Virus record (IMG/VR): IMGVR_UViG_3300017698_000003
Coordinates: 1-42,756 of that record
Strand: one strand, 5' to 3'
Origin: a virus
DNA: 42,756 nucleotides
The notes under the pieces were generated by a model that did no database searches, was not told the origin of the DNA, and was given only the letters and a program-made list of their open reading frames with translations. Made by a program: the position numbers and the translations under genes. Positions 1 to 42,756 of this stretch are shown piece after piece (the stretch's first letter is position 1; each line of letters begins with the position of its first letter).

Positions 1-99
1 GAAGGCCGGTTGCCCGGCGGTCGCCGCGTTGTCGCTGTACGGGTTCGGTAGGGTGTTGCCGCTAACTACGTCCATTAAAATAAACGGGTAGAATATTAC
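1..99. repeat. Left copy of exact 99-bp terminal direct repeat
   Basis: gaaggccggttgcccggcgg...gggtagaatattac is identical to 42658..42756. Confidence 0.95.
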
Positions 100-1134
100 G
101 CGCTTACCCCGCGCCTTAAGGTACTGGATAAGTTCGGTAACGCTTTGGTCGCTAGGCGTGCCGCCGAAAATCGGTCGCCCCTGCCCGTCTTTCGATACTT
201 CGGTAGTATTGCTTCGGTTGTAACTGCCCACAGACCAAGCGGGCGTTAGAACCCGGCCCGCGTCTTCGATACGGGGGCGAACTGTGCATACCCCGGCGCG
301 TAGGTCGTCGCCGAACCACGATACGGCGATTAGTACCGCGTCAAGGTTGTTTTGCATACGTAGCAGGTTGGCTAGGGAAACCGTAACGTCGGTTTCGCGG
401 AATGCGTTATGCACGTTATCGGGTTTGTTCGTTGGGTTGGCGTCGGTGCCGCCGGTCTTCGACAACACCTTAGACGGCGAATACACGGTTTCGCCCGACG
501 CGGGTATTAGCGTAAACGCCCGCCCGCTGTTCGATATATCTACCGGGTCGTCGGTTTCGACCGGCACGACGATTTCGGCGGTAATCTGTGGCACGCGATT
601 GCCGAAGTCGGCAAGTTGCATGTCTTCGATAACGATATAGGCCGTACCGCGATACGCGGGTGCGTTGCCTGCGCCCTGTACTTCTTCTATCTTAGGGTCG
701 GCGGTTTGCGTGCTGCTACCGGGGTAGAAACGGAAGTTAAGCAACGACAAGTCGATTTCGTCGCCGTCCGCCCACATACGGGAAATAGACGCCTTGCTAT
801 TGCCCTTGCAAAACGCAATTGCCAGCGAAATAGAATACGTATAGGTCGTGGTAGTCTGCGTGTTACCGCCGCCGCCACCTTTACCGCCCGACTGTACTTT
901 AGTCGTTTCGGTGTTGACCGTTTCCTTAAAGTTGGTGCCCCAAATGATTTGGCCGTTAAGCCGCTGGCGTCCGAATACCTGCGCTTGCCCCGCGCCTTCG
1001 GTAGACGTAGTTAGGCGCGACGAATTAAGCCGCCCGCTTTCGCTTGAAGTGTTCGTGCCTTTGTTGCCGAACAGTAGGTAGGAACCTACCGCCGTAACTG
1101 CGCCAATGGCTACCGCAATTGCAATCTGTGCCAT
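1..1134 (-). CDS. Baseplate/host-specificity protein, RcGTA g15 (megatron)-like, N-terminal 378 codons; the gene continues across the junction at 42657
   Basis: Missing from the ORF track because it runs off the window. Hand translation: ATG at 1134 (TAATG overlap with the stop of 1134..1568), no stop down to base 1, in frame with 39931..42732 through the overlap. MAQIAIAVAIGAV..., YSISLAIAFCKG, RMWADGDEI, PAYRGTAYIVIEDM and FGNRVPQI match GTA g15-type N-termini. Confidence 0.85.
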   Translation of the reverse strand, partial: MAQIAIAVAIGAVTAVGSYLLFGNKGTNTSSESGRLNSSRLTTSTEGAGQAQVFGRQRLNGQIIWGTNFKETVNTETTKVQSGGKGGGGGNTQTTTTYTYSISLAIAFCKGNSKASISRMWADGDEIDLSLLNFRFYPGSSTQTADPKIEEVQGAGNAPAYRGTAYIVIEDMQLADFGNRVPQITAEIVVPVETDDPVDISNSGRAFTLIPASGETVYSPSKVLSKTGGTDANPTNKPDNVHNAFRETDVTVSLANLLRMQNNLDAVLIAVSWFGDDLRAGVCTVRPRIEDAGRVLTPAWSVGSYNRSNTTEVSKDGQGRPIFGGTPSDQSVTELIQYLKARGKRVIFYPFILMDVVSGNTLPNPYSDNAATAGQPAF

Positions 1135-6690: not shown

Positions 6691-8226
6691 TTACGCGACG
6701 GGCATTGCAACCGTTGGAAGGTAGGCGAATGCCGTATACGACATGGTATAACCTTCTTCGTTTTCCGCGCCGAAGTTTTCAATCGGTACGGTAATCGGGT
6801 TATCCTTTTCGACGTTAAGCCGACCCCCGCCGACGCCAAGCAAGGGCAGGTCGTAGACAAGACCCTTATTCGCCTGCGCCAAAATGGCGTTAAACGATAC
6901 GTCGCTGTTGTTGCGGATAGCCTGCACACTTTCGACGGTCGTAAAGTACGCAGTAACCGCGCCGCCTGCGACGAAGTTACCTACGTTAATGTCGATACCG
7001 CCAAGCGCCCCAACGGCCTTGGTAGCCGTCGCGTTGTTGTTGATAGTAAACGTTGCGTCGGATACGTAGGCGAACAGCGACGTAGGCGAAAGCGTCGTAG
7101 CGTCAAGCAAGGTCATTGCCAGACGGAACACCGACGAAGACGTGTTGTAGGGCTTTTGCTGCGCTAGTTCGACATGCGTACCAGACTTAACGCCGGTAGC
7201 GCCTGTGCGTTGTTCGTTGTCAAGCGCGACGTAACCAAAGTCGGCGGTATGCTTGTCGGTAAGCGGAATGTTCAACGTAAGTTCGTTGGCGACCGCCCCG
7301 GCCAAGTATTCGGATTGTACGCCGTCGTCGTCTTCGCCTAGCGTGCGTTCAACGTTGTAGGTACGCGTCACGATAAGCGAAGGCGTCTTTTCGTTGCGAA
7401 CGTAGGTGCCCGCAAATACGCGAATGGTCTTGCCCGCCCCGGCGTCGGTTGCAAGCGTCCCAATCCATGCCACTTCGTCAAGCGTTACGGTGCTGTTCGA
7501 CTTCGACTTGACGCGCCCGTACCCGTACCCGGCTGCGTACTGCGTGCCTACGGCGTCGCCGCCGATAAACACCCATTCGCCGATTTGCAGGTCAAGGTTA
7601 AGCCAATCGCTTGCCGTGCTTTCCAGCGTCACAAGGCCGCTAGCTACGGTCATGGCAAGGTCGCCCGACCCGAATTCGAAGCCGACTTGCTGCACGCGTG
7701 CGTCGCTTGGCGGCGACGCTTCTACGGTAGTAGCGTGGTCGGTCGTTACGGTTGTGCCGGTAGACGCGGATACAAGGCCGATACCGTTGTTAACCGCGTT
7801 GGTGAACCCCGACGTAAACACAAGCGCCCCGGCGACGAAGACCGTAAGGCCGGAAGCCGCGCCGAAAACGCCGGAACCGGCAACCGACGTAATCGGTATG
7901 GCCGTACCGTTCAACGGTGCCGTATCGACCTTTTCGTGCGCGTCTGCGAAGAAAAAGCCTTGCATATCGCGCGTAAGGTCGTTGTTCATGTCGATATTGT
8001 AGCCGCCCGACGCGTCAAGGTCGGTAACTGTGCCGCGTTGGTTCTGGCGTGACGCGTTGATAGGGTCCGACGCTACGGTAGCGATTTCGCCGCCGAAGTC
8101 GGAATACGAATTTACCGCGCGGTCGTACCAAATTGGCGAACCGGGCAATACCTTCGGGGTTGAACTTTCTTCGGCAACAGACACGCCCGTAACGTTGCTG
8201 TTGACTGTTTTCTTACTGCTAGCCAT
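6691..8226 (-). CDS. Major tail (tube) protein, large form
   Basis: 511 aa, placed between the terminator-like protein and the chaperones. Strong AGGAG SD, and a hairpin follows the gene. Call rests on position. Confidence 0.55.
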   Translation of the reverse strand: MASSKKTVNSNVTGVSVAEESSTPKVLPGSPIWYDRAVNSYSDFGGEIATVASDPINASRQNQRGTVTDLDASGGYNIDMNNDLTRDMQGFFFADAHEKVDTAPLNGTAIPITSVAGSGVFGAASGLTVFVAGALVFTSGFTNAVNNGIGLVSASTGTTVTTDHATTVEASPPSDARVQQVGFEFGSGDLAMTVASGLVTLESTASDWLNLDLQIGEWVFIGGDAVGTQYAAGYGYGRVKSKSNSTVTLDEVAWIGTLATDAGAGKTIRVFAGTYVRNEKTPSLIVTRTYNVERTLGEDDDGVQSEYLAGAVANELTLNIPLTDKHTADFGYVALDNEQRTGATGVKSGTHVELAQQKPYNTSSSVFRLAMTLLDATTLSPTSLFAYVSDATFTINNNATATKAVGALGGIDINVGNFVAGGAVTAYFTTVESVQAIRNNSDVSFNAILAQANKGLVYDLPLLGVGGGRLNVEKDNPITVPIENFGAENEEGYTMSYTAFAYLPTVAMPVA

Positions 8227-8242
8227 TGTCTTTACTCCTAGG

Positions 8243-10110: not shown

Positions 10111-10554
10111 TTACGCGTTGGGTTTCCAAGCCGCCGCCGCTTTCGCTTTAGCGTCCGCGTCGGCCTTGGCCTTGGCGGCTTCTTCGTCGGCCTTCTTCTT
10201 CGCTTCGGCGGCTTTCTTCGCGTCGCCTTCGGCGTCCTTGGCCGTCTTATCAAGCGCGGCTTTCTGCGCCGCTTCGCCTTCGGTCTTTTTCTTTTCGTAG
10301 GCGGCTTTGCGTTCGGCTTCGAACTTTTCGATAGCCTTGCGAACCGTCGGATACTTTTCCTTGTACCGGGCGGGAACTTCGCCCGCAACGCCGTCGCAGG
10401 TTTCAAGCGCCCCTTCGTCGGACACAAGCAACGCGTTACGGAAAGACACACGGCACGGGGCCAGCTTTTCCGCTTCAAGCTGTTGTTCAAGGGTCGGCGT
10501 CGTACCGTTCACGAAGAACAGGATACGGGGCAATTTTGTAAGCGCGTGGGCCAT
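10111..10554 (-). CDS. Hypothetical capsid-associated protein with Lys/Ala/Glu-rich tail
   Basis: N-terminus ILFFVNGTTPT...CDGVAGEVPARY is homologous to that of 9586..10098. The C-terminal ~70 aa are low-complexity K/A/E repeats. Confidence 0.4.
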   Translation of the reverse strand: MAHALTKLPRILFFVNGTTPTLEQQLEAEKLAPCRVSFRNALLVSDEGALETCDGVAGEVPARYKEKYPTVRKAIEKFEAERKAAYEKKKTEGEAAQKAALDKTAKDAEGDAKKAAEAKKKADEEAAKAKADADAKAKAAAAWKPNA

Positions 10555-10587
10555 GGGTCTAACTCCTATCGTTGGCGTGCGTTAGTT

Positions 10588-10648: not shown

Positions 10649-11608
10649 TTAGTCGGTTTCGACGACGACCCCGGCAAGGTCTTTGATAGACGTTGCGTAT
10701 TGGTCCCAATTGGTCGCAGTCGCAAGGGCCGCGTCGGTCGGCGATTTGCCGCCGTTCGTCTCGTCCCATGCAAAACCCTTGATACCAAGGTTATACGACC
10801 ATTCAGCTTGGTAGGTGCGCTGAATGTTTTCGTCGCCGTTCGACGTTTCGTAGTTGTCGTCGAAGTCGTCGTTTTGGTCAACCATGACCGCGCCCGGCAC
10901 AAGGCCAAGGTTATGGTACACGTCGGGGGAACCGGCGGTAATCAGGCCGGGGCTATCGGTCACGACGAACACGCGCCCGAAGGCGTCGGAAACGACGTTG
11001 ACCGTACCGTAGGTAAACAGCCGTTCGGCGTTCGCAAGGGCGTTGTCGTAGAAGTCGGTAATCGGCTTCGAATGAACAACCCATGCAACGATTTCCGACT
11101 GTCGGTCGCCGAACTTGCCCGCGCCGGTATTCAGCGCACGCGAAGTAAGGGTGCCGGTCGAAGTGTGGTCGTAGACAACGCCCGCAACCTGCGACAAGGC
11201 CGCGTAGGTCGTGATAACGCCGGTATTCAGCATATCCGCAAGCATGTCCTGCGCAAGCTGTTGACCAAGCGCCGCCCCGGCTTCTTCGGGGTTAACCTGT
11301 ATCCAACGGAATTGGCCGGGGTCAAGGTTGATAGGCGGCGTACCACCGGCAACCTTGACCATGGTATCGGTCAAGTGTTCCATGTTCTTCGCGGTAACGG
11401 TGCCAGAACCGTAGGCGTTCCGACGACGTACAAGGCCGCTAACCTTCTTCCAAAAGGCGCGGTCGCTGTAATCGCCTTGGTGCGCCTGCGTAGAAAGCAC
11501 CATGGTATTGCGCGAAGCTGTGTTGAACAGTTCGATTTGCTGCGCAATGACTTCCGTCATAGCGTCGTAGGTGTATTCAGAGAATACGGCAAGGTCTGAA
11601 AGGGCCAC
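10649..11608 (-). CDS. Major capsid protein
   Basis: 319 aa directly after the scaffold gene, AGGAG SD, followed by a strong terminator. Call rests on position. Confidence 0.7.
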   Translation of the reverse strand: MALSDLAVFSEYTYDAMTEVIAQQIELFNTASRNTMVLSTQAHQGDYSDRAFWKKVSGLVRRRNAYGSGTVTAKNMEHLTDTMVKVAGGTPPINLDPGQFRWIQVNPEEAGAALGQQLAQDMLADMLNTGVITTYAALSQVAGVVYDHTSTGTLTSRALNTGAGKFGDRQSEIVAWVVHSKPITDFYDNALANAERLFTYGTVNVVSDAFGRVFVVTDSPGLITAGSPDVYHNLGLVPGAVMVDQNDDFDDNYETSNGDENIQRTYQAEWSYNLGIKGFAWDETNGGKSPTDAALATATNWDQYATSIKDLAGVVVETD

Positions 11609-11619
11609 GGTAATTACTC

Positions 11620-14975: not shown

Positions 14976-16583
14976 CTATGTTGCGTGCCGAACTTTAATC
15001 TTCTTCGCGGCCCTGTTGTTGCTAGTCAAGACCCGATAACGCACCATGTCGTAGGTATGGTCTTCGGCGTCTGTGTCTACGTCGTCGGGGTCGTCTTCGT
15101 CACGCGGTAGCGCCGGTATTAGCGTAATCGACGCGGCGCAGTTCGACATAAAGTAAATGCCCGGCCCTTCGCCCTTTATAGACGCTTCTAACCTATCGCG
15201 CAATAGCTGAAACCCGTTCTTGCGTGAACCCTTAGACTTGTCGCTACGCGTCCAACGTATGCCCTTATCGGCCATTTTCTTTTCTATCGTGTCTACGTCG
15301 CTTTCGCGCACGTCGCGTATTTGGTTATCAGCCGGGCCGGGTGCCGGTTGCTGCGTAACCCAACCGTGTTCTAGCAACGCTATTTCCCGGTCGCGTACGC
15401 CTATAGCAACGTCGGGCGCAGACATTTTAAGCCCCTTGTTCGTGCCTATGCCCTGCGTGCCGTACCATTCGTTAAACATGATAAGCGTACCGCGCGGCGG
15501 GCAGAACGTAGACCCGTCGGGCAAGGTAACTTCTTCGCCGTTGGCTTCGCACCACCAACCGACCGCGAACGGGTGCGACGACCCCCAATCGAACGAACGG
15601 TTAACGTGCCAGCCTTCGGGCACCGGGAAGCGTTCAAGTATATGTACGTCGCGTTTCCAAAGGTCGTCGAAGGCACCGCCCGCGTTAACGTCCCATGAAC
15701 CTAGAAGCCATGCGGCGCGCAAGTTGGGGTCGCTAATGCGTTCAAGTTCGGCGACGTATTCAGGCGGCAAATAAATGTTTTCGCGGTAGCTACCGAAAAT
15801 AGCTACCTGCGTCTTAACTACGATAACGTCGGTTTGCGTTTGCGGGTTAAACACCGGCACTTCGGTTCGCACGACTTCGCCGTTTTTGGCTGGCGTGATA
15901 AAGCGCATTTTAACCCAATTGTGCCCCGGCCCGTTCGGGTTCGTAGTTGCGAACACTTCAAGCGGAATAGGTGGCAAGGGTTTCTTGTCTAGGGTATCGT
16001 AGACTACTTCGTACGTACCGTCGTCGCGCTTAATCGTTTCAAGCACGGGCGTATCGCGTTCGGGGCTAAACGACGAACGGTTAGTAGACATTAACTTGTC
16101 GTACAATTCCGACGTAGGGTACTTCGTTAATTCGTTCCAGCCGATAAACGGGTATTCGTGCCCGTGGAAGTTGTCGTAGTCGCTAGGCTTCTTAGCGTGC
16201 CTAAACAACAGTTCTTCGCCAGTAGGCCAAACCCATTTATATTCACTAGCCCCACTAAGGAACTTAGCGCCGTCGCCAAACTGTAGAAAGAAGCGTTTAG
16301 ACTGCGCAACCAAATCGGCAAGGTTCTTAAATTCCCGGTCGAATATAACGCCGCGCCAATACGTGCCGTAGCCTTTGCCCACACGCGACCGAAACCGCAT
16401 AAGCTGCGTAATCGTTTTGCCGGGGCCGCGCGCGCCGTGGTAAAGCGTGTGGTGGCAACGCGTATCTAGGGCTAGTTCCTGCGACGTACCGGGAATAGGT
16501 TCCCATACGGTCGATAGTCCCATTTCCTTAAGCTTTGCCCGCGTTAAGGCTTGCTCAATTAATTGCGGGCTGTGCTGCGTCAT
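14976..16583 (-). CDS. terL: Terminase large subunit
   Basis: Walker A in HGARGPGKT, 535 aa, followed by the portal gene. C-terminal nuclease-like acidic region. Confidence 0.85.
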   Translation of the reverse strand: MTQHSPQLIEQALTRAKLKEMGLSTVWEPIPGTSQELALDTRCHHTLYHGARGPGKTITQLMRFRSRVGKGYGTYWRGVIFDREFKNLADLVAQSKRFFLQFGDGAKFLSGASEYKWVWPTGEELLFRHAKKPSDYDNFHGHEYPFIGWNELTKYPTSELYDKLMSTNRSSFSPERDTPVLETIKRDDGTYEVVYDTLDKKPLPPIPLEVFATTNPNGPGHNWVKMRFITPAKNGEVVRTEVPVFNPQTQTDVIVVKTQVAIFGSYRENIYLPPEYVAELERISDPNLRAAWLLGSWDVNAGGAFDDLWKRDVHILERFPVPEGWHVNRSFDWGSSHPFAVGWWCEANGEEVTLPDGSTFCPPRGTLIMFNEWYGTQGIGTNKGLKMSAPDVAIGVRDREIALLEHGWVTQQPAPGPADNQIRDVRESDVDTIEKKMADKGIRWTRSDKSKGSRKNGFQLLRDRLEASIKGEGPGIYFMSNCAASITLIPALPRDEDDPDDVDTDAEDHTYDMVRYRVLTSNNRAAKKIKVRHAT

Positions 16584-17028: not shown

Positions 17029-17038
17029 GCGCGGAACT

Positions 17039-18386: not shown

Positions 18387-18438
18387 GGTCGTAAATCTCC
18401 TACGTAGGGTTGTGCGCTTATGCGCGGGTTATCACGGC

Positions 18439-25754: not shown

Positions 25755-25765
25755 GGTCTTTACTC

Positions 25766-26602: not shown

Positions 26603-26630
26603 TGTTCTACCTTTCGTTTATGTTGCCCTA

Positions 26631-26659
26631 TACCTACACCTACGACGCGCCTACGTCAA
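26631..26659 (-). promoter_or_regulatory. Promoter TTGACG-N17-TAGGTA
   Basis: Minus strand -35 at 26659-26654 (context TTGACGTAGGC, the same as at 20646) and -10 at 26636-26631. Confidence 0.55.
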
Positions 26660-26939
26660 TACCCTACGACGATAAATACGCTATAATGCCCTTATATTTT
26701 TTGTTATACCCGTAAACCCTTGATAGAGTTAGATAATATATAGAGTTATAATAAGTATAATAAGTATAATAGATAAGTAGACCCTTTATCGTAGTTTACC
26801 GTCGCTTTCAACCGACGTAGGCACCCCACACTAGGGGGTCTATCTAGCCATTATACGGAAATACGTTATATTGTGTTTGTTTACAGACACTTAGCTATTA
26901 TACGGCTATTATATCATTATACTAAAGCCGATAACTACG
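26660..26939. repeat. AT-rich non-coding region with short direct repeats (candidate replication origin or regulatory hub)
   Basis: ATAGAGTTA at 26723 and 26740. Tandem ATAAGTATA at 26751 and 26760. ATTATAC(GG) at 26850, 26897 and 26916. No ORF. Far more AT-rich than the flanks. Confidence 0.5.
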
Positions 26940-32278: not shown

Positions 32279-32770
32279 ATGGCGGGCATAACCGACGCGT
32301 TACCGCCGCCCCTAATATGTGATAACTGCGAAAGCCAAAGGGTAAAGCTATACCGAAACACAAGACGAAATCGGGCAAAGTACGTTTGCTTGCAATGCAA
32401 GGCAAGCGTCTACTGCCACAAGGGCACTAGCGTACCCCTAGGGTACATGGCAACAGCGAAGACAAGATACTTACGTGCTAAAGCGCACGAAGTCTTCGAC
32501 CCCCTTTGGCAACACGGCCTAATGACGCGCGACGAAGCGTACGAATGGCTAGCCCGGCAAATGTCGATACCCGGCGCAAACGCACACATAGGGCGGTTAG
32601 ACGATAACCAATTAGAACGGGTCGTGCGCAAATGCGCGCGGCATTACCGGAAACTAACGGCCAAGGCCAAGCGACAAAAGGCGGTAAGACATGCTACCGA
32701 TAGAAGACAACGTACCTATTCCCGTTCAAGGAAACGCGGCGGAAAATGGAAACCAATCCCCGACAATTGA
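32279..32770 (+). CDS. Zinc-finger protein, DUF3268-like
   Basis: CDNC...YVCLQCKASVYCHKGT..PLGYMA...HEVFDPLWQ...AYEWLA fits the pattern as I recall it. Confidence 0.5.
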   Translation: MAGITDALPPPLICDNCESQRVKLYRNTRRNRAKYVCLQCKASVYCHKGTSVPLGYMATAKTRYLRAKAHEVFDPLWQHGLMTRDEAYEWLARQMSIPGANAHIGRLDDNQLERVVRKCARHYRKLTAKAKRQKAVRHATDRRQRTYSRSRKRGGKWKPIPDN

Positions 32771-33650
32771 CGACCCCCTAGCGGCACCGGGCAAGCGAAA
32801 AGAGCTTGCCCGCGTTATCCTACAGGACATTGACGCGTATTGCGTGCAGGCGTACGACGACGGGCACCGCAACCACTTAGGCGCGTCGCTTATCGGTCAC
32901 GAATGCACGCGCTACCTGTGGAACGTGTTCCGTTGGCTTAAGCGGGAAAACTTCGAAGGCCGTATGCTGCGCCTATTCCAGCGTGGGCACCGCGAAGAAG
33001 CCGCCTTTGAAGAATACTTGCGGGGTATCGGGGCGCAGGTCGTCGCGTTCCAGCCCGACGCAGACGGAAACGCGAACAAGGGCGAACAACAATACCGCAT
33101 TAGCGCCGTGCAAGGCCACTTCGGCGGGTCGCTTGACGGGCAACTTATCTTGCCAGAACGTTACGGCGTACCCTTCGGCATGTTGTCGGAATACAAGACC
33201 AAGGGCACCGGGCGCGGCTTTACGGAACTTAAAGAAAAGGGCGTGAAGCTAACCAACCCGACGCACTACGCGCAAATGTCAATGTACGGTCGCGCGTACG
33301 GGTACAAGTACGCCATGTATATGTCGGTCAACAAAAACGACGACGACCTACACGTAGAAATCGTCGAACTTGATTGGCGGTTAGGCGAAGAACTAGAACG
33401 CAAGGCATACGACGTAATCACGGCGCAGGTTCCGCCCGCCAAGGTCGCCGAAACCCCGGCGTACAAGACGTGTAAAATGTGCCACTTTTCCGGCGTATGT
33501 TTTAGCGGCGAAGCCGTCGAACGTAATTGCCGTAGTTGCGCGAACGCACGCCCCGTAGACGAAGGCAAATGGTATTGCGCAGTCTTCGAAGACGTGATAC
33601 CGTCGGATTATATCAAGCAAGGGTGCGACCGGCACACGCCGATAGCATAG
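32691..33650 (+). CDS. PD-(D/E)xK exonuclease, Cas4/RecB-like, with a 4-Cys cluster
   Basis: GGSLDG...LSEYKTKG (D...ExK). Cys in GHECTRYLW plus CKMCHFSGVC (CxxCx5C), as in Cas4/AddB Fe-S nucleases. Confidence 0.65.
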   Translation: MLPIEDNVPIPVQGNAAENGNQSPTIDDPLAAPGKRKELARVILQDIDAYCVQAYDDGHRNHLGASLIGHECTRYLWNVFRWLKRENFEGRMLRLFQRGHREEAAFEEYLRGIGAQVVAFQPDADGNANKGEQQYRISAVQGHFGGSLDGQLILPERYGVPFGMLSEYKTKGTGRGFTELKEKGVKLTNPTHYAQMSMYGRAYGYKYAMYMSVNKNDDDLHVEIVELDWRLGEELERKAYDVITAQVPPAKVAETPAYKTCKMCHFSGVCFSGEAVERNCRSCANARPVDEGKWYCAVFEDVIPSDYIKQGCDRHTPIA

Positions 33651-33657
33651 GGCCGAA

Positions 33658-35289
33658 ATGTCGTTACGTTGGTATCAAGACGAAGCTATAGAAAGCATTT
33701 TTCAATACTTCGGTAACGGCGGGGTAGGTAATCCCGTCGTTGCGTTGCCCACAGGCACCGGCAAATCGCACGTAATCGGCGGGTTTCAACAGCGCGCGCT
33801 AGGCTACTGGCCTAGGCAACGGTTCATTAACCTAACGCACGTAAAGGAACTTGTAGAACAGAACGCGAAGAAGCTTATAGGTATGTGGCCTTCGGCCCCC
33901 GTAGGCATTAACAGCGCGGGCTTGAAGCAACGCGACATAATGCAAGCGATTATCTTTGCGGGTATTGCCAGCGTAGCGAAGAACCCGGCGGCGCTAGGGC
34001 ACCGCGACCTAGCCCTAATAGACGAATGCCACCTTGTCAGCCCTAACGCCGAAACCACGTACCAAACCTTTCTAGCGGCTTTGCGCGAAGTGAACCCGTA
34101 CCTTAAGGTCGTTGGCTTCACTGCGACCCCGTACCGTCTAGGGCAGGGCATGATTACCGACGGCGGCTTGTTTACCGACATATGCTACGACATGACGAAT
34201 ATTGACGGGTTCGGGCGGTTGCTTGCCGAAGGGTTCTTAGCGCCCTTGTTCCCGCGACCAACGAAGACCGAACTAGACGTGTCGGGCGTAGGTATGTCGA
34301 ACGGCGACTACACGCAAAACGCGCTACAAGCCGCCGTAGACAAGCAAGACGTAACCTACCGCGCACTAATGGAATTGTGCGAAGCCGGTTGGAACCGCCG
34401 CGCTTGGCTCGTCTTCGCGTCTGGCGTAGAACACGCCGAACACATAGCCGAAATGCTTAACAGCTTTGGCATTCCGTCCGCCGCCGTTCATTCAAAGATG
34501 AAAGCAAGCGAACGCGACGAACGTATTAAGGCGTTCAAGCGGGGCGAACTTAGGTGCCTAGTCAACAACAACGTTTTGACTACGGGCTTTGACTACCCGC
34601 CTATCGACCTAATCGGAATGCTGCGCCCTACCATGTCGCCCGGCCTGTGGGTTCAAATGCTAGGCCGGGGTACGCGTCCGTTCCTTGACGGCGGCTATAT
34701 CGACATAGGGGGCGGTCAAGAACTGTGGATACCGGGCGGCAAGACCGATTGCCTTGTGCTTGACTTCGCGGGCAACACGAAGCGGCTAGGGCCGATTAAC
34801 GACCCGTGCATACCGAAGAAGAAGAAGGGTATAGCAGGCGACGCGCCCGTGCGCATATGCGACGTATGCGGAACGTATAACCATGCGGCGGCGACGCATT
34901 GCATTTGTTGCGGTACTGAATTCGAACGCAGGGAAAAACTAACCGACAAGGCGTCGAACGAAGAACTATTGCGCAGCGACGCGCCCGTAGTCGAATACTT
35001 CGACGTAACGCGCGTAATGTACCACAGGCACGAAAAGAAGGATACGGGCGCTATAAGCCTGCGCTGCGACTACTATAGCGGCATTCAACGCTTTAGCGAA
35101 TGGGTACACTTCGAAAAGGGCGGTATGCCGGGGCACAAGGCTAAAGAGTGGTGGCGGCAACGTCACGCCGCCGAACCGCCCGCAACAGTTGACGAAGCCC
35201 TTACGTTCGTGTCGCAGCTTCGCGCGCCCCGTCGTATTCGCGTATGGACAAACAAACGTTACCCGGAGATTTTAGGCTATGAATATTGA
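33658..35289 (+). CDS. Superfamily 2 DEAD/DEAH-box DNA helicase
   Basis: ALPTGTGKSHV (motif I), LIDECHLV (II), GFTATPYR (III), QMLGRGTR (VI). C-terminal CDVC...CICC zinc ribbon. Confidence 0.8.
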   Translation: MSLRWYQDEAIESIFQYFGNGGVGNPVVALPTGTGKSHVIGGFQQRALGYWPRQRFINLTHVKELVEQNAKKLIGMWPSAPVGINSAGLKQRDIMQAIIFAGIASVAKNPAALGHRDLALIDECHLVSPNAETTYQTFLAALREVNPYLKVVGFTATPYRLGQGMITDGGLFTDICYDMTNIDGFGRLLAEGFLAPLFPRPTKTELDVSGVGMSNGDYTQNALQAAVDKQDVTYRALMELCEAGWNRRAWLVFASGVEHAEHIAEMLNSFGIPSAAVHSKMKASERDERIKAFKRGELRCLVNNNVLTTGFDYPPIDLIGMLRPTMSPGLWVQMLGRGTRPFLDGGYIDIGGGQELWIPGGKTDCLVLDFAGNTKRLGPINDPCIPKKKKGIAGDAPVRICDVCGTYNHAAATHCICCGTEFERREKLTDKASNEELLRSDAPVVEYFDVTRVMYHRHEKKDTGAISLRCDYYSGIQRFSEWVHFEKGGMPGHKAKEWWRQRHAAEPPATVDEALTFVSQLRAPRRIRVWTNKRYPEILGYEY

Positions 35290-35527
35290 TAGAGGAACGG
35301 CGAACCTTGAACTACTTACTACGTGGTTGTGCAATCGTATAAGCGTACACACGAAGTACAGTATAGAACGCGAAGTGCGTAACGCCCTTCGAACGTGCGT
35401 TACGTGCGAACACTTTGACAAGGACGCCGAAACGTGTAAACTAGCAGACGGGCAACGACCGCCCGCTAAGGTCATAGCGTACGGCTGCGATAGCTATACG
35501 TTCGAATTCGACGACATACCATTTTAA
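35279..35527 (+). CDS. Small 4-Cys protein ending in an SSB-like acidic tip (..EFDDIPF)
   Basis: 82 aa with a GGAG SD. CVTC-x10-C-x16-C. The last six residues FDDIPF match the conserved bacterial SSB C-terminal tip DDDIPF. Confidence 0.55.
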   Translation: MNIDRGTANLELLTTWLCNRISVHTKYSIEREVRNALRTCVTCEHFDKDAETCKLADGQRPPAKVIAYGCDSYTFEFDDIPF

Positions 35528-36553: not shown

Positions 36554-38566
36554 TTGTTCTTCGATACCGTAGATTTAGCGCCCCGTAAGCGTTCGACGTT
36601 ACGCGCAGCCCCGCCGGTTCCCCACACAGGTTGGACCCCGCCGCGCGAATTCCCGAACCTATCCGCCGCGACCGCGCTAGCCATTGACTGCGAAACGAAA
36701 GAAACCGACTTTTCGAACGGCCCCGGTTGGGGTCGCGGTAAGGGTCATATCGTCGGCGTGTCCGTAGCTGCACAGGCGGCGGACGGCGCACGCGGTAAAT
36801 GGTACTTCCCGGTTAGGCACGAAGTAGAGGGGCACGACAACCTAGACCCGCGCGGCGTATTCGGTTGGCTTAAGTCGGTGCTGCACACGCCAGTACCGAA
36901 GGTAGGGGCGAACCTGTTGTACGACGTGGGTTGGCTAACGACCGAAGACATTTACGTGCAAGGGCCGTTGCATGACGTGCAGTTTGCCGAAGCACTTATA
37001 GACGAATTCGCTTTTGTGGCGTTGGACGTGCTAGGGCATAAGTATCTAGGCCAGCGCAAGACTAGCGACCTTATGTACGATTGGTTGCGCGAAGCCTACC
37101 CGGAAACGCCTAAGTCGGAAACGCGCGGCGATATTTACCGTTGTCCGCCCCGGCTTGTGGGGCACTACGCCGAAGACGACGCCGACCTACCCTTGCGCAT
37201 TATCCCGCACCAATACGACGAAATGTTGCGGCAAGGTCTATTAACGGTTTATCGGCTAGAATGCGACCTAATACCGCTTCTAATCAGAATGCGGCGCGAA
37301 GGTGTTACCGTTGACATTCCAGCCGCGACGAAGCTATACGACGAAATGCAAGGCGAAATACGCGGACTATACGACCGTATCGGGTCCGAATATGGCTACA
37401 GTATTTCAAGTTCGGATAGTCGCCAGCTAGGGCCGCTATTCCAGCGCGTAGGCATTGCTACCCCTATGACGGACGCGGGCAACCCTAGCGTACAAAAGGA
37501 ATGGCTAGCCGGGCTAGAACACCCACTAGGCGACATTGTGCGCGACATACGCGAACGCGAAAAGTTGTGCGGCACGTTTATTCAGTCGTACATTATTGAC
37601 AAGAACGTAAACGGGAAAATATTCCCGCAATTTCACCCACTAAAGGGCGACGACAACGGCGCTAAGGTAGGCCGGTTCGCGTCAAGTGACCCCAACCTAC
37701 AAAACATACCGTCGCGCACTAAACTAGGTAAGCGCGTGCGGCAATTGTTCATACCCGACGCAGGCCACCACCATTGGACTAAGCTAGACTACTCACAAAT
37801 TCATTACCGCATTCTAGCGCACTTTGCCGTCGGGCCGGGTGCCGAAGAACTACGGCAAGCGTATATCAGAAACAAAGAAACCGACTACCACCAAAATGTA
37901 CTTGAAGCGGTCGCGCCGCTTATGGGTTGGGACACTAGCGACGACGAACATAACGCGTTCGTGCGCCGACCTATCAAAAACGTTAACTTCGGCCTGCTAT
38001 ACGGGCAGTCGCTTAAGTCGCTTATGCTTAAGACGGCTGCGTATTTCGGCGGCGCGTTCACCGAAGAACAGGCTAAAGGCTTCTTCGACGCCTACTTTAA
38101 GGGCGCACCATACGTTAAGCCAACTATGAAAATGATAGGCGAAGAAGTGCAGCAATTCGGCTACACGACTTCGGTACTTGGCCGTCGTTGCCGGTTCAAC
38201 CTGTGGGAACCCGGCGTGCGCGGCGAATGGGGCGACGCCCTGCCATACGACCAAGCGATACGCGAATACGGGTCGTTTATCCGTCGCGCGTACGAATATC
38301 GCGGCGTTAACTACAAGTTCCAATCGTCGGAACCGGACATTATGAAAACCGGCATGTTAAAGTGCCTCAATAGCGGCGTGTTCGACTACACAGGCGTACC
38401 GCGCCTAACTGTGCATGACGAACTAGACTTTAGCGTGCGCGACGACACGCCCGAAATGCGGGAAGCGTTCGAATTTATTCAGCATACTATGGAAGGTGCC
38501 GTAGAACTTAAGGTGCCGGTCTTCGTAGACATGGAACGCGGCCCGAATTGGGGCAAGGTCGATTAA
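36554..38566 (+). CDS. Family A DNA polymerase with 3'-5' exonuclease domain
   Basis: Exo motifs LAIDCETKE, NLLYDVGWL and HYAEDDADL. Pol motifs KLDYSQIHYRILAH (A), RRPIKNVNFGLLYGQS (B) and VHDELDF (C). TTG start with an AGGGGG SD. Confidence 0.85.
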   Translation: MFFDTVDLAPRKRSTLRAAPPVPHTGWTPPREFPNLSAATALAIDCETKETDFSNGPGWGRGKGHIVGVSVAAQAADGARGKWYFPVRHEVEGHDNLDPRGVFGWLKSVLHTPVPKVGANLLYDVGWLTTEDIYVQGPLHDVQFAEALIDEFAFVALDVLGHKYLGQRKTSDLMYDWLREAYPETPKSETRGDIYRCPPRLVGHYAEDDADLPLRIIPHQYDEMLRQGLLTVYRLECDLIPLLIRMRREGVTVDIPAATKLYDEMQGEIRGLYDRIGSEYGYSISSSDSRQLGPLFQRVGIATPMTDAGNPSVQKEWLAGLEHPLGDIVRDIREREKLCGTFIQSYIIDKNVNGKIFPQFHPLKGDDNGAKVGRFASSDPNLQNIPSRTKLGKRVRQLFIPDAGHHHWTKLDYSQIHYRILAHFAVGPGAEELRQAYIRNKETDYHQNVLEAVAPLMGWDTSDDEHNAFVRRPIKNVNFGLLYGQSLKSLMLKTAAYFGGAFTEEQAKGFFDAYFKGAPYVKPTMKMIGEEVQQFGYTTSVLGRRCRFNLWEPGVRGEWGDALPYDQAIREYGSFIRRAYEYRGVNYKFQSSEPDIMKTGMLKCLNSGVFDYTGVPRLTVHDELDFSVRDDTPEMREAFEFIQHTMEGAVELKVPVFVDMERGPNWGKVD

Positions 38567-38596: not shown

Positions 38597-39934
38597 TTAA
38601 GCGACCTGTACGCCCCAAAAGTAGTTTTCGTCGGCGGCTACGTAAGCGTCTTGCCCGACAAAGAACGCCCGCAAATCGACCGTATCGCCCGCCGTAAGCT
38701 TAAGGCACGCGGTAACACTTATCGACGTGGTGTCGTCGATAGCTGCGCCGCCTTCGCCTGTGCGCCGTGACGCGTCGGCGGTTGGGCTTGCCGCATTGAC
38801 GCTAAACCCTATTTGAATGGCCGTAGGTACGGTTCCGTTCGTCTTGTGCAGGAACCCGCCCCCGAACAGGTAGTAGCCGTCGTGCGGGGCCGTAAACGCG
38901 CCAGACGAAACCGACGCTTGGTCGTTGTGGCGTGTGTTGTTTATATCAATCTTGAACCATGCCCCGGCGGCGTTGTATTGGTCGTAGTTCAAGTACCCGC
39001 TAAACTTCGGGTGTTGCGGTAGGGATACCGCCGCCGTGTCTTTGTCCGCGATAAGGGCAATAGTGTACACCGAACCGTCGGGCGAAGTTTTAAGCGTCCA
39101 ATCGTCGTCGCCAAGCAACCCGGCAAGCGCGCGGCCCGAAAAGTTCGTTTGCCATGTAACCGACGCGTCGTTAGCCGCCGCGTTTTTACTGAATACGAAG
39201 CCGAAGCTACCCGACGAACTAAACAACGCGCTTGACCCCTGCACGCTAAGAACGTTGTTTGCGTCGGCTGTTGCACCGCCGAAACCTACGTGCCCGTTGT
39301 CCGCGTCTACGTGCATGGCTTGGTAGAACGTCGAACCGTCGGGGCTAACACTAATAACGTAGTCGTCGATACCGTTAAGCCCCGCAATAACGCGCGTGCT
39401 AAACCCGGTCTTGTACGTCAATGTCGCCACGTCGCCCGACGCGTTCTTATTAAGCACTACGTCTATATCGTCGGTTTCGCGGTTGAACAGTACGCCCGGC
39501 GTGTTGATTGATAGCCGGTTAGTAGTATCCGCCGTCGCGCCGTTGATACCAAGCAACAGTACGTCGCCTTGCGCCAACGACGTAGCGTTGACCGGCGACG
39601 TATAGGTGCCCCATGCCGCGCCGTCGTACAGGTACATAAGCCCTTCGTCGCGTACATAAACTAGCCAACCTTCGCGCGGGGTATGGAAGTACCAAGCCGT
39701 TTCTTGCCACGACGCTAGCTTACCCGCTTGACCTGCCCACAGGCCGGTAGGGCTAGCCCCGACTATGTACGTATCGCCGTTCGTTGGCGAACCCGGCGGG
39801 GTCGCAAGGTCTTTGTCTTCGGCGTATGCCTGCACAACGGCGTCTAAGGCGCGGAAACCGTCGTTAACGCTAACGTGTTTTTGCGACTGTGCGGCTTCAA
39901 GGTACGTAATACCTAGGTTCGGTGTATCGGTCAT
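38597..39934 (-). CDS. Tail fibre: DUF2793 N-terminal domain plus C1q/TNF-like C-terminal head
   Basis: N-terminus LGITYLEAAQSQKHVSVNDGFRALDAVV...PPGSPTNGDTYIVG..PTGLWAGQAGKLASW fits the DUF2793 pattern. C-terminus FTAPHDGYYLFGGGF...LKLTAGDTVDL is C1q-like. ATGA overlap with the g15-like stop. Confidence 0.65.
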   Translation of the reverse strand: MTDTPNLGITYLEAAQSQKHVSVNDGFRALDAVVQAYAEDKDLATPPGSPTNGDTYIVGASPTGLWAGQAGKLASWQETAWYFHTPREGWLVYVRDEGLMYLYDGAAWGTYTSPVNATSLAQGDVLLLGINGATADTTNRLSINTPGVLFNRETDDIDVVLNKNASGDVATLTYKTGFSTRVIAGLNGIDDYVISVSPDGSTFYQAMHVDADNGHVGFGGATADANNVLSVQGSSALFSSSGSFGFVFSKNAAANDASVTWQTNFSGRALAGLLGDDDWTLKTSPDGSVYTIALIADKDTAAVSLPQHPKFSGYLNYDQYNAAGAWFKIDINNTRHNDQASVSSGAFTAPHDGYYLFGGGFLHKTNGTVPTAIQIGFSVNAASPTADASRRTGEGGAAIDDTTSISVTACLKLTAGDTVDLRAFFVGQDAYVAADENYFWGVQVA

Positions 39935-42756
39935 GGTGTTGCACTCCTAATAGCTATGGTTTCTTCGCGCAACGAACCGTAGTTACCGTACGCGGCCCCG
40001 AACTGCGCAACGTCTACCGTTAGCGAAGTCTGCGCCGTACCGAAGTCGGTAACTTGGTCGGCTGCGCTATAGGTGTACGTCGGTGTCGTCAATTCTACTT
40101 CGCGTACAATAGTCACGCCGTCGTAAATGCGCAAGCGGTACTGTTCGCTTTCTTCGTTCAATGGCGGATTAGAAACCGACCAACCGTCGCCGTTAAAGCG
40201 CGTGCGGCGCTTCCATGCTATAGCAAGGTCGCCGCTTCCGTTAATCGACATTTGCACGCCTGTAGGGGCGTAGGGGCGCAGCCCGACGCGCTTACCTTGG
40301 TGCGTGCCCGTCCTGTACGTGTCGTCGCTTTGCGGGTAGCGCGACGGCCCCCAACTATAGGTAAATTCGTCGGCGCTTTGCGCGTCCGTCATTACTACCG
40401 GCGATATAAACGATTGTTCAAGCAACACGACGGGGGCACCTGTGGGCACCGGGTCGCCCATTGCGTTTTCAGTACCAAGTTGCCCGCGTAGTAGGTCCGT
40501 TACGTCGTACGCGTTGGTTCCTGTTAGCGTAGTCGTTGCGAACTGTATAACTTCCCATTCGTCTTTAGCTTCGTTGTAGACGCCTAGGGCAATAGCCCCG
40601 TTCAACGCTACCAATTCGTCAACGCTGGCAAGCGCGCCGTAATCGAATGCGACGGAAAGTACGTTGCCCCTATCCCAAACGCCATGGGGCGCGGAATATA
40701 GCGGGGCGGTAAGTTCGCCGATTGAATTCTTATACGGGTGCCGGTTGTTGAATTCGTACGTACTGTCGGAAAGTTGGCGGTATAGCGATATTTCGCCCGG
40801 CCAAGGGTCCGCGTAGGTTACGAACATAGGTGCCCATGGTAGCGGTTCTTCGCCCGTGAATAGCGGCAAGTCAAGGAACACCAATTGCGCCGACCCGTAG
40901 ATATTGCCGATACCCGGCAAGCGGTCGTCTTCGGGCGCGTTGGGTAGGCTGAATATGCCGGGGTCGAACGCGGCGAATTCTGCGTTACGCATTTCGCCAA
41001 GCGATAGCAGGGTAAGCCGCCCGGTAAGGCTATGGCTTCCGACGGGAAACGTAATTGCGTCGCCGGGGTCTAGCTTAGACAACGACGGGGGTAGTTTCAT
41101 CTTGCCCGTTTGGCGTTCAATCCATTTCTGTTGTACAAGGCCGTCGGCAAGACTACGGCAATAGTCCGTCGTAAGAAGTAGCGGCAAGTCTAGTTCTTCG
41201 ATTGTCTGCGAATATCCGCGCGAAGTCTTGCCGTCAACCGACCCCGAATTGTAGTCGTTGAATTCGTCGATAAACGTTACCTTGATAGACGACGGCAAGT
41301 CGGTTTCTTGCCCGCGCTTAAGCGTAACGCCTACGGCGTCGTTGTCGTCTACTACAAAGTCGTCGTCTGATATTGACGACGTGCGCGTGTTACTGCGCAG
41401 TAAGAACTTAATCTTACCTTCGCTTTCGAACGCGTCGAATAGATAGCCTTCCATAAGCGTTTCAATGCTTGCCCGTATCCGTTCGGGCTTTTCGACATTG
41501 TAGCCCCGCACAAGGGCACCGGGGCCGTACAGGCCGGTAACGTCGTATTGGTCGGGGGTCAGCCCCGCCAGACTGCACAGATAGGCCACAAGGCGGGCTA
41601 GGGGCACGCTTTCAATGCGCCCCGTCCACCAATGCCCCTTAAACCACAAATCGCCGTCTGACCACACGGTAGACCGCGCCGGGTAGTCGGGAAATGGCCG
41701 GGCGTCCCATGTCCAAATGAACATATTCTTAGTTTCAAGCATTGATAGACCCGAACCATTATCGGGCGAATTCGACCCCCAATAGTCAAGCACGGCTTCG
41801 ACGGCTACACGCTGTATAAAGTCGTCGCGCAATCCCGACGAAAAGTACGGAAAGGAACTTTCCGAAGACTTAGGGTCGTAGAATACGTTCGGTTGGTTGG
41901 TGCCTTTGTCTATCGCAGGCACGCCGAATTCAGTAAACCAAATAGGCTTAGACCCCGGAACCCAACCCGTAGGGCTAGCGTCTTCGACGCCGCCGGGGCG
42001 GTTGTAGTGCGAATTCAACCACCACGAACGAAAATCTTTGTTGCGGAAAACCCACGGCTTGCCGTACGCGCCGTCGGTTATCGGCGTACGCGTTTGCGAT
42101 ATGCGGTCGGCTTCACTTGCGTAGTACCAATCGAAGTATTCGCCGCCTTCGATATTCGACTTAAGGTAGTCGGGTTCGTACGTAGATACGGGGCCGTTAA
42201 CCCCGTCGTAGTCAAGGTGCTGCGACCCGTCGCGCCAATCCGACAACGGTAGGTAGTTGTCGCAGCCGCAAGCGTCGATATTTGCCGAAGACCAAAGCGG
42301 GTCTAAGTGGAACCAATGGCCGTCGCTTCGGCTATCGTACCATTCCGACCAATCGGCGGCGTAGGTAACGTCTGTGCCGCCCCCTACGATACCCTTAACC
42401 GTCGCAGCTAGCGACACAAGGCGGGTTACGCCGGGGTACGACCCTAGCGCGTCGCGCGTCTTCGTAATCTGCACAAGTTCGGACCCGATAACGAAGCCGT
42501 CAACGCCCCCGGCTGCGTCGCATAGGTTAGCGTAGTGCGTAACCATGGCGTCGTATTCGTCGAACCAAGCGTTAACCTGTGTTGCAGCCGCCGCCGTCTT
42601 ATCGACCGACCCGGCATAGCCGTAAGCGGGGCTAGCCGTAATACGCCCGCGCCATGGGAAGGCCGGTTGCCCGGCGGTCGCCGCGTTGTCGCTGTACGGG
42701 TTCGGTAGGGTGTTGCCGCTAACTACGTCCATTAAAATAAACGGGTAGAATATTAC
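39931..42756 (-). CDS. Baseplate/host-specificity protein, RcGTA g15-like, C-terminal part (same gene as 1..1134; total about 1286 aa)
   Basis: The frame is open to the window end. The Met at 42732 is internal: the junction reads ...GKRVIFYPFILMDVVSGNTLPNPY..., as in the GTA TIM-barrel-like domain. It sits after the g14-like peptidase, in GTA order. Confidence 0.85.
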   Translation of the reverse strand, partial: VIFYPFILMDVVSGNTLPNPYSDNAATAGQPAFPWRGRITASPAYGYAGSVDKTAAAATQVNAWFDEYDAMVTHYANLCDAAGGVDGFVIGSELVQITKTRDALGSYPGVTRLVSLAATVKGIVGGGTDVTYAADWSEWYDSRSDGHWFHLDPLWSSANIDACGCDNYLPLSDWRDGSQHLDYDGVNGPVSTYEPDYLKSNIEGGEYFDWYYASEADRISQTRTPITDGAYGKPWVFRNKDFRSWWLNSHYNRPGGVEDASPTGWVPGSKPIWFTEFGVPAIDKGTNQPNVFYDPKSSESSFPYFSSGLRDDFIQRVAVEAVLDYWGSNSPDNGSGLSMLETKNMFIWTWDARPFPDYPARSTVWSDGDLWFKGHWWTGRIESVPLARLVAYLCSLAGLTPDQYDVTGLYGPGALVRGYNVEKPERIRASIETLMEGYLFDAFESEGKIKFLLRSNTRTSSISDDDFVVDDNDAVGVTLKRGQETDLPSSIKVTFIDEFNDYNSGSVDGKTSRGYSQTIEELDLPLLLTTDYCRSLADGLVQQKWIERQTGKMKLPPSLSKLDPGDAITFPVGSHSLTGRLTLLSLGEMRNAEFAAFDPGIFSLPNAPEDDRLPGIGNIYGSAQLVFLDLPLFTGEEPLPWAPMFVTYADPWPGEISLYRQLSDSTYEFNNRHPYKNSIGELTAPLYSAPHGVWDRGNVLSVAFDYGALASVDELVALNGAIALGVYNEAKDEWEVIQFATTTLTGTNAYDVTDLLRGQLGTENAMGDPVPTGAPVVLLEQSFISPVVMTDAQSADEFTYSWGPSRYPQSDDTYRTGTHQGKRVGLRPYAPTGVQMSINGSGDLAIAWKRRTRFNGDGWSVSNPPLNEESEQYRLRIYDGVTIVREVELTTPTYTYSAADQVTDFGTAQTSLTVDVAQFGAAYGNYGSLREETIAIRSATP
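42658..42756. repeat. Right copy of exact 99-bp terminal direct repeat
   Basis: Identical to 1..99. It lies inside a coding frame, so it behaves like an assembly overlap. Confidence 0.95.

Follow-up and report, generated by a model that had tools for sequence, protein, structure and literature searches.

The stretch of DNA analysed here, which we will henceforth refer to as the window, is IMG/VR virus record IMGVR_UViG_3300017698_000003 (42,756 bp, 56.8% G+C), a phage genome in which the trinucleotide GAG and its complement CTC are almost absent. The window encodes a siphovirus with a gene transfer agent (GTA)-like distal tail. Its replication genes comprise a family A DNA polymerase, an NrS-1-like primase-polymerase (prim-pol) fused to a DUF3987 helicase, a superfamily 2 helicase and a Cas4-like exonuclease, and it also encodes a Sak4-like ATPase, a DUF669 single-stranded DNA-binding protein, an RNase H and a VRR-NUC nuclease. 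It belongs to the lytic siphoviruses of the PA73/KL1/RcTitan/vB_PmaS-R3 group, and the nearest isolate is Paracoccus phage vB_PmaS-R3 (hereafter R3), with 76.8% nucleotide identity over about half of the genome.

Exact counts, made on the plus strand unless stated otherwise, gave no GATC and not a single GAATC, GACTC, GAGTC or GATTC (i.e., no GANTC), just as an earlier note on this DNA had claimed, together with 19 GAG and 19 CTC, so that its tally of about 37 becomes 38. Base composition alone predicts 161 GATC, 161 GANTC and 1489 GAG+CTC, the last corresponding to a ratio of observed to expected counts (O/E) of 0.03. A first-order Markov model predicts 358 GAG and 448 CTC (about 806 together; O/E 0.05 and 0.04). 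Maximal-order Markov models with strands pooled gave the same picture for GATC (0 vs. 97) and GAWTC (0 vs. 61), and observed counts thus fall far below, rather than near, Markov expectation. The 15 other 4-bp palindromes all occur, and CTAG is as abundant as had been noticed, with 165 copies (O/E 1.03), seven of them within positions 33780-34290. The most over-represented trinucleotides were AAG/CTT and TTC/GAA (O/E 1.4-1.7), while CAG/CTG reached an O/E of 0.44, compared with 0.03 for GAG.

We then considered the 61 genes called in the window. Glutamate is encoded 717 times by GAA and 11 times by GAG, CTC makes up 5 of 1024 leucine codons, and both words are scarce in each of the three codon phases. 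When synonymous codons were shuffled within each gene, which preserves the protein and the phage's own skewed codon usage, about 348 GAG/CTC were expected across codon boundaries and 12 were observed; codon preference as the cause is ruled out by this result. The same shuffle predicted about 83 GATC and 33 GAWTC (none observed of either), 209 GATG/CATC (5 observed) and 70 CCWGG (none observed). The two words are equally rare in sense strands, with about 21 GAG and about 17 CTC by a tally from the site list and the gene strands, which argues against a cause at the mRNA level. Given that all phases, codon boundaries and both sense-strand words are depleted, the constraint acts on DNA, codon pairs included, and not on codon preference or mRNA. 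Both the pattern described in the earlier note (glutamate nearly always GAA, leucine nearly never CTC, codon junctions avoided) and its reading as a constraint on duplex DNA were therefore borne out.

GAG, GATC and GANTC had been presented as three special cases; they are indeed the strongest items, but they belong to an avoidance set that numbers well over 100 words and is common to a phage family. Specifically, the window holds 5 GATG/CATC (322 expected from base composition, 130 by the Markov model), no CCWGG (120 expected), and 0 CCCAG, 1 ACCAG and 5 GACAG against 59 expected, and NNNCAG is the hexamer class most often missing (33%). Of the 64 six-bp palindromes, 34 are missing, compared with 8% of non-palindromic 6-mers, and the palindromes behave in an all-or-nothing manner: CCCGGG, CCGCGG, CTGCAG and GTCGAC have no copies each, CGCGCG has 63 and CGTACG 48. 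We compared these words with known specificities in the Biopython REBASE table, taking as testable the 531 specificities with at least 8 expected sites. The window has no site for 143 of them (27%), 46 of which contain GAG or CTC, and R3 likewise lacks sites for 143. Among GAG-free specificities, real palindromic sites were missing in 35.2% of cases and letter-permuted controls in 5.4%; for asymmetric and bipartite sites the corresponding values were 15.3% and 5.1%. This enrichment for real restriction-modification (R-M) sites, along with components specific to the host clade (see below), identifies the wider pattern as restriction-site avoidance.

The avoidance extends to bipartite words. A de novo scan of words of the form 3-N(3-9)-3, with expectations derived from observed trinucleotide frequencies and at least 12 expected copies, found 36-42 words with no copies in the window, where a Poisson model expects 0.004. 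They include CGA-N5-GTC (0 vs. 43), CCA-N9-TCG (0 vs. 22), CGA-N6-TCG (0 vs. 29, or 0 vs. 58 when both strands are counted; 54 vs. 97 in RcTitan), CAC-N4/5/7-GTC and GAC-N3/6/7-GTC. Each half of the missing words has an A on one strand, as is the case in Type I and Type IIB sites. Several words missing across the family have no match in the Biopython REBASE table (e.g., CGA-N6-TCG, CGA-N5-GTC, GAA-N6-GTC and CAG-N5/N7-GTC), and could be sites of Type I or IIB systems that await description.

How GAG relates to known sites differs from the rest of the vocabulary. GATC, GANTC, CCWGG and the palindromes are complete sites of known enzymes, whereas no specificity in the Biopython REBASE table equals bare GAG/CTC, which can be at most a core or half-site. 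As an embedded word, GAG/CTC is the top trinucleotide, found in 76 of 617 known specificities, followed by CGA (73), GAA (71) and CAG (70). Among the half-sites of 78 known bipartite specificities it comes third (CCA 17, GAC 14, GAG 11, GAA 10, CAC 8, and GCA, GGA, CGA and TCA 7 each), and the hubs of bipartite avoidance in the family (GAC, CGA, CAG, GAA, CCA, CAC and GGA) read as this list of common half-sites minus GAG. We also considered whether the frequency of a trinucleotide in known sites predicts its depletion, as a "master key" would; although GAG ranks first, no overall correlation was found (rho 0.06).

The purge of GAG is not confined to the window. Counts of GAG+CTC in isolates were 12 against 1459 expected in R3 (Paracoccus), 10 against 1517 in RcTitan (Rhodobacter), 29 against 1449 in KL1 (Burkholderia), 28 against 1432 in PA73 (Pseudomonas) and 41 against 1439 in BAPIC_0004 (Variovorax), i.e., O/E 0.01-0.03 in all five, and hence in phages of alpha-, beta- and gammaproteobacteria. 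R3 additionally has 4 GATC, no GANTC and no CTC on its plus strand. Other isolates covered the range from partial depletion to near-normal values (IMEAB3 0.26, Suba 0.28, Axy20 0.38, BREN6 0.59, Kimi 0.66, BcepGomr 0.70, GH32 0.88 and M6 0.92). The same was true of 80 IMG/VR contigs encoding TerL relatives, which showed all grades: six contigs (L007, L011, L013, L014, L016 and L017) had O/E 0.01-0.04, many others 0.1-0.6, and distant relatives about 1.0. Given that the same purge occurs in independently sequenced R3, RcTitan, KL1, PA73, PaMx10 and BAPIC_0004 and in many metagenomic contigs, an assembly or sequencing artefact is ruled out. In a neighbour-joining tree of TerL, extreme purges fell into at least 5 separate clades, each with unpurged sisters (e.g., KL1/PA73 beside BREN6, L013/L017 beside L054, and L011/L014 beside L021). 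On the evidence of this tree, the purge is a family trait that has arisen repeatedly.

Six complete purged genomes (the window, R3, RcTitan, KL1, PA73 and BAPIC_0004) share 50 minimal avoided words, which include CCWGG, numerous words of the NNNCAG type and some 20 six-bp palindromes. Depletion in at least 5 of the six extends to 27 bipartite words, and each genome has between 13 and 46 bipartite words with no copies, compared with 0-5 in BREN6, IMEAB3, M6 and GH32. Avoidance of GTAC and CTAG varies by lineage. The link between GANTC avoidance and Alphaproteobacteria (via CcrM/HinfI-type sites) that had been proposed was supported: GAWTC has no copies in 4 of 4 alpha-hosted phages (the window, R3, RcTitan and Kimi), and stands at or above expectation in all 6 beta- or gamma-hosted ones (KL1, PA73, BAPIC_0004, Suba, Axy20 and BcepGomr). 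Across 51 relatives, GAG O/E was negatively correlated with the fraction of missing non-palindromic 6-mers (rho -0.71) and with missing bipartite words (rho -0.72), and more weakly with missing palindromes (rho -0.46). Five of five contrasts between purged lineages and their sisters on the TerL tree went in the same direction, with more asymmetric and bipartite avoidance in the purged lineage.

Host DNA does not share the bias. In 68 chromosomal loci of Alphaproteobacteria, Paracoccus among them, median O/E was 0.83 for GAG, 2.45 for GATC, 1.94 for GATG, 0.31 for GANTC and 0.07 for CTAG. These values rule out host compositional bias as the cause, and the genome-wide host bias that the earlier note had named as grounds for doubt was not seen. 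Base composition itself does not seem to follow the host: G+C is 53-57% in purged family members irrespective of host, compared with 69-72% in Paracoccus loci and about 66-67% in Burkholderia, P. aeruginosa and R. capsulatus.

To understand how the pressure on GAG acts, we looked at partly purged relatives and at a pair of close ones. Thinning was independent of context, with all NGAG and GAGN words dropping together (1.0 to 0.45 to 0.16 to 0.02) and with NNNGAG hexamers in partly purged relatives no more dispersed than those of control trinucleotides. A union of specific GAG-containing hexamers as the avoided set was therefore rejected, since NNNGAG and GAGNNN words showed no zero-or-normal pattern, although power is low at 15-35 kb. 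Between PA73 and PaMx10 (3.8% divergence), where the genome-wide substitution spectrum predicts 177 single-step changes creating GAG or CTC, only 3 were observed. Existing GAGs had changed in 4 of 25 cases (16%), whereas an average trinucleotide changed in about 11%. A motif that is selected against whenever it newly arises, even now, seems to fit this better than one that is hypermutable.

Nine of the 38 survivors in the window are GGAG Shine-Dalgarno sites, close to the ten or so AGGAG sites that had been listed earlier, of which the coordinate 11608 should read 11617. Eight lie on the minus strand. The motif TAGGAGT has its GAG at 8235-8237 (major tail protein gene, 6691-8226), 10563-10565 (gene 10111-10554), 11617-11619 (major capsid gene, 10649-11608), 17037-17039 (small terminase gene, 16555-17028), 20597-20599 (gene 20349-20588), 25763-25765 (gene 25518-25754) and 39944-39946 (tail gene 38597-39934), and TAGGAGA precedes gene 17955-18386 (GAG at 18397-18399). 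The ninth, a Shine-Dalgarno-like CCGGAGA on the plus strand (35266-35268), lies upstream of gene 35279-35527. The sites of the major tail protein and major capsid genes are also kept in R3. Such sites make up roughly a quarter to a half of survivors (the window has 9 among its 38, R3 has 6 among 12, and KL1, PA73 and BAPIC_0004 have 14-16 among 28-41), with TAGGAGT as the motif in the window and R3 and AAGGAGT in the other three; none was found among the surviving GAGs of RcTitan. The remaining ribosome-binding sites of the window are mostly GAG-free, of the AAGGAA or GGGGG type. Retention of GAG in these positions implies a cost per site small enough for a strong Shine-Dalgarno sequence to outweigh.

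Gene content offered no obvious cause. Non-structural proteins and all unassigned proteins of at least 190 aa were scanned against Pfam, PHROGs, PADLOC and NCBIfam, small open reading frames (ORFs) only in part. No methyltransferase or base-modification gene was found in these scans, in which all proteins of at least 190 aa were accounted for and small ORFs partly covered, nor was a dpdA or queuosine-pathway gene seen in the window. The scans yielded a polymerase, prim-pol, helicases, an exonuclease, RNase H and VRR-NUC only. A phage DNA modification with GAG specificity, as had been suggested, is accordingly not supported by the proteins scanned. Conserved genes of no assigned function include DUF7303, DUF7173 and DUF7178, and searches of PDB, PADLOC and NCBIfam with the conserved proteins of no assigned role gave no match. 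A family-conserved nuclease gene (21309-21821, minus strand), for which R3 and KL1 carry the annotation "Vsr endonuclease", was considered as a candidate for cleavage or repair directed at GAG. We rejected it on the grounds that the protein has no Pfam match of its own and that its homologues carry VRR-NUC (PF08774), a structure-specific family; the gene also occurs in BREN6 and IMEAB3, where the purge is weak. Across nine genomes, no gene convincingly tracked the purge by its presence or absence, DUF7173 being missing only from the partial BREN6 sequence. Finally, the family A DNA polymerase of the window (36554-38566, plus strand) and that of R3 are 46% identical to the polymerase of GH32 (Queuovirinae) and have no tblastn match in PA73, KL1, RcTitan or BAPIC_0004 (E <= 1e-5). 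Judged from these comparisons, the polymerase module is exchanged within the family while the GAG purge stays unchanged, and a polymerase-driven bias is unlikely given that the purge is the same in phages without a detectable match to this polymerase.

The explanation that we favour, and to which we would give an even chance, is aggregate evasion of many restriction systems, with GAG purged as the shared core or half-site of asymmetric systems that methylate adenine at N6 (m6A). We infer that R-M systems or systems of the bacteriophage exclusion (BREX) type are the selecting agents, and that GAG is their shared core and not the target of a single agent. The phage would thereby escape host DNA-targeting defences passively, by carrying a genome without their target sequences, the words having been removed by synonymous changes and codon-pair choice. 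The classes removed in this way would be short Type II sites (GATC, GANTC, CCWGG, GATG and about half of the 6-bp palindromes), asymmetric hexamers, especially NNNCAG, and bipartite words resembling Type I or IIB sites (CGA-N5-GTC, CAC-N7-GTC, GAC-N3/6/7-GTC and others), with the GAG/CTC purge as the end point of this broad removal. The systems concerned would be adenine-methylating ones, i.e., Type I, Type IIB/IIG/IIL, Type III and BREX. Each lost GAG would delete a potential full site for many enzymes, with a benefit per site that is small and additive, and about 38 survivors would, by a rough estimate, leave fewer than one full site per given partner half-site. Removal would come free of protein cost (GAG to GAA, CTC to other leucine codons, junctions via codon-pair choice), and GAG would be retained mainly where it is useful, in the GGAG Shine-Dalgarno sites of highly expressed genes. 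Other common half-sites would be harder to lose: GAA could not be removed as well because glutamate needs one of its two codons, TGG (the complement of CCA) could not because it is the sole tryptophan codon, and GAC would have to stay because avoidance of GATC, GATG and GANTC limits the use of its synonym GAT.

Several observations weigh against this explanation. CAG/CTG would be equally cheap to remove and occurs in 70 known specificities against 76 for GAG, yet it is depleted 15-fold less (0.44 vs. 0.03), and CGA/TCG (73 specificities) and GAA/TTC (71) are even over-represented, in keeping with the overall rho of 0.06. Uniform thinning across contexts fits a true 3-mer target as well as it fits a half-site with variable partners. 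Strong palindrome avoidance coexists with normal GAG in L079, L053, L042 and Kimi, and the correlations over 51 relatives are not fully corrected for phylogeny. We therefore take seriously, while considering it rather less probable than not, that GAG/CTC is itself the target of an undescribed activity, either a defence common throughout Proteobacteria or an enzyme of these phages, which recognises three nucleotides of DNA, general site avoidance being a parallel phenomenon and not the cause. The cost of each site would be small and additive, and would time and again have led members of the family to lose the trinucleotide. The uncharacterised GAG-specific system proposed in the earlier note thus keeps some probability in view of the CAG gap, but it is no longer the most economical reading.

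One form of such an activity, which we regard as doubtful, is a single dedicated host factor, widespread in Proteobacteria, that would act on bare GAG/CTC in double- or single-stranded DNA at a small cost per site and so thin the motif gradually; a frequent nicking enzyme, a DNA ADP-ribosyltransferase or deaminase, or a modification-dependent system would be candidates. Depletion that is independent of context at all stages would suit it, as would the far greater scarcity of GAG than of CAG, CGA or GAA despite similar frequencies in known sites. The equal rarity of both orientations is what a duplex target, or a single-stranded target on both strands, would give, the roughly 38 tolerated survivors imply a low cost per site and no lethal single cut, and new GAGs are still rejected in PA73-type phages. 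Agents with such short motifs exist, e.g., T4 endonuclease IV (TCA in single-stranded DNA), the chlorella-virus nickases Nt.CviQII (RAG) and Nt.CviPII (CCD), and the motifs of DarT. Against it, the Biopython REBASE table contains no 3-bp GAG site and we know of no system with GAG specificity; purged lineages are scattered over the tree and have unpurged sisters whose host groups are similar, and the purge accompanies avoidance of other asymmetric and bipartite words, as general exposure to R-M systems would give. The agent might instead be encoded by the phage, as a nuclease or DNA-processing enzyme that attacks GAG/CTC in host or competing DNA while the phage's own genome, lacking the motif, is spared. 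T4 provides a precedent, with endonuclease IV cutting TCA in cytosine-containing DNA and T4 itself protected by hydroxymethylcytosine (hmC), and such an enzyme would account for a purge that recurs across hosts of three proteobacterial classes, for a G+C content that ignores that of the host and for a core avoidance set common to the family, which also has the conserved genes of no assigned function listed above. We nevertheless judge it unlikely: the sole conserved nuclease candidate (21309-21821) is of the VRR-NUC type and occurs in weakly purged phages, only DUF7173 splits purged from unpurged genomes and does so on the strength of one incomplete genome, purged lineages on the TerL tree are scattered and look convergent, such an enzyme would go on cutting the 10-41 residual sites, and the polymerase comparison argues against a cause linked to that enzyme.

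Two further explanations do without a GAG-cleaving agent. If GAG/CTC were hypermutable, through context-specific deamination or biased mismatch repair, it would decay to GAA, AAG, CTT and TTC, with protected copies persisting; the most enriched trinucleotides are precisely these transition neighbours, and relatives show a gradual thinning whatever the flanking context. Existing GAGs are, however, not unusually unstable (16% vs. about 11%) and creating changes are what is missing (3 vs. 177), for mutation alone to keep O/E at 0.02, losses would have to be about 50 times as frequent as gains, mutation cannot account for the accompanying loss of 34 specific palindromes and dozens of bipartite words, and host DNA is unaffected. 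Quick reversion of new GAGs combined with selective retention of survivors could in principle fit these data, but overall we consider a mutational origin very improbable. Least probable of all, with poor support, is avoidance of a protospacer adjacent motif (PAM), a PAM-like requirement having been among the earlier suggestions: were GAG/CTC the PAM of the hosts' CRISPR-Cas (clustered regularly interspaced short palindromic repeats and associated proteins) systems, its removal would deny both acquisition and interference, at a cost per site that is additive and strand-symmetric, and GAG is one permissive PAM of E. coli type I-E. Yet the canonical proteobacterial PAMs, AAG/CTT (I-E) and TTC/GAA (I-C), are the most over-represented trinucleotides of the window, the identical purge occurs in Pseudomonas, Burkholderia, Variovorax, Rhodobacter and Paracoccus phages, whose hosts are not known to have a single CRISPR type in common, and it co-varies with avoidance of R-M-type sites.

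Restriction-site avoidance as such is textbook knowledge in virulent phages: T7 and other coliphages lack many Type II sites and Staphylococcus phage K lacks GATC, and the phenomenon has reportedly been surveyed by Sharp (1986), Rocha (2001) and Rusinov (2018). The family resembles these cases in that short, mostly palindromic R-M sites are lost by synonymous change on both strands and in all phases, in that avoidance is strongest in lytic phages without methyltransferases and absent from host DNA, and in that lineage-specific sets track the host clade (GANTC in alphaproteobacterial phages). It differs in scale, with 27% of testable specificities and dozens of bipartite, Type-I-like words missing, in having a core set that spans three proteobacterial classes, and in the roughly 40-fold purge of a whole trinucleotide. 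Targeted full-text searches of the open-access literature (where absence is no proof) gave no earlier description, for this or any other family, of a purged trinucleotide or of bipartite sites avoided on a large scale. Papers on R3, KL1, Rhodobacter phages and Loki make no mention of the purge, and the R3 genome paper is silent on restriction or motifs.

Other systems offer partial parallels. Counter-selection of GATC in enterobacteriophages by Dam/MutH, said to have been described by McClelland (1985) and by Deschavanne and Radman (1991), likewise removes a very short motif genome-wide at a graded cost per site, and does so via a host system outside classical R-M; there, however, the motif has 4 bp and the agent is identified, whereas here it has 3 bp, is non-palindromic and has no identified agent. 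Alphaproteobacterial hosts are not known to have Dam/MutH. T4 endonuclease IV, Nt.CviQII and Nt.CviPII demonstrate that recognition of three nucleotides of DNA can have biological consequences from which a virus keeps its own genome free, but T4 and the chlorella viruses protect themselves by hmC or methylation, while protection here would come from the missing motif; no homologues of T4 endonuclease IV or the chlorella-virus nickases were detected in the protein scans of the window. The Queuovirinae phages 9g, CAjan and Seurat carry a 7-deazaguanine modification of their DNA, in which DpdA acts on the G of GA and GGC contexts. These phages are TerL relatives from the same broad group, their modification has an anti-restriction purpose, and its GA context overlaps GAG, GATC, GANTC and GATG, but protection is chemical and active there and would be passive here. 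Their member GH32 has a GAG O/E of 0.88, almost no palindrome avoidance and no bipartite avoidance.

If aggregate evasion of restriction is the correct explanation, the family shows how far passive evasion can reach, with about a quarter of known specificities missed, including Type-I-like bipartite sites, whose avoidance is commonly considered difficult, and with a whole trinucleotide gone. The list of avoided words would then reveal which defence specificities are important in nature, and words without a known enzyme (e.g., CGA-N6-TCG or CGA-N5-GTC) would be predictions of new R-M specificities. PA73-like and KL1-like phages infect targets of phage therapy (P. aeruginosa and the B. cepacia complex), where low restriction-site content may help explain plating on diverse strains, and removal of GAG and NNNCAG would be a design rule for engineered phages. 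If, alternatively, a dedicated cause is at work, a DNA-targeting activity specific for three nucleotides is yet to be described, and P. aeruginosa infected with PA73 would be a convenient setting for the search.

Some smaller observations concern the surviving GAGs and individual genes. TAGAG occurs 9 times on the plus strand of the window (starts at 4802, 21029, 21343, 24232, 24429, 26724, 26741, 35290 and 36825) and never on the minus strand, and thus contains 9 of the 19 plus-strand GAGs. The copies mostly take the form WATAGAGT after a -10-like TAnAAT, and most lie inside minus-strand genes; two (26724-26746) are in an AT-rich intergenic region (26603-26939) between the prim-pol gene and gene 26408-26602. 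They have no counterpart in R3, and could be antisense promoters, priming sites or recent insertions. Two TAGAGT copies fall within the gene of a 305-aa protein (23633-24550, minus strand), whose only match is PHROG 6247 ("DNA topoisomerase"); it has no match in Pfam, NCBIfam, PADLOC or PDB and no homologue in R3, RcTitan, KL1, PA73 or BAPIC_0004. In KL1, PA73 and BAPIC_0004, the heptamer TCGGAGT recurs 4-5 times each among only about 30 surviving GAGs, a recurrence that suggests a conserved regulatory element needing GAG.

A relative with a different balance of avoided words is Sphingomonas phage Kimi (L173, 10.9 kb), which has no GATC, GAWTC, GTAC or CCWGG at a GAG O/E of 0.66, and in which CAG (CAG/CTG O/E 0.27) rather than GAG is the most depleted asymmetric trinucleotide. 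Within the window, an ORF at 32279-32770 (plus strand) encodes a DUF3268 zinc finger (Pfam E = 1e-31). The beginning of the Cas4-like exonuclease gene (32691-33650) lies within this ORF, which is probably genuine, though it is not in the greedy gene list. Lastly, contig00011 (1133 bp) of the draft genome of Citromicrobium sp. JLT1363 encodes a fragment 82% identical to the GTA-like tail protein of the window, contains one GAG and no GATC, and is probably either phage contamination or a hint at the host genus.

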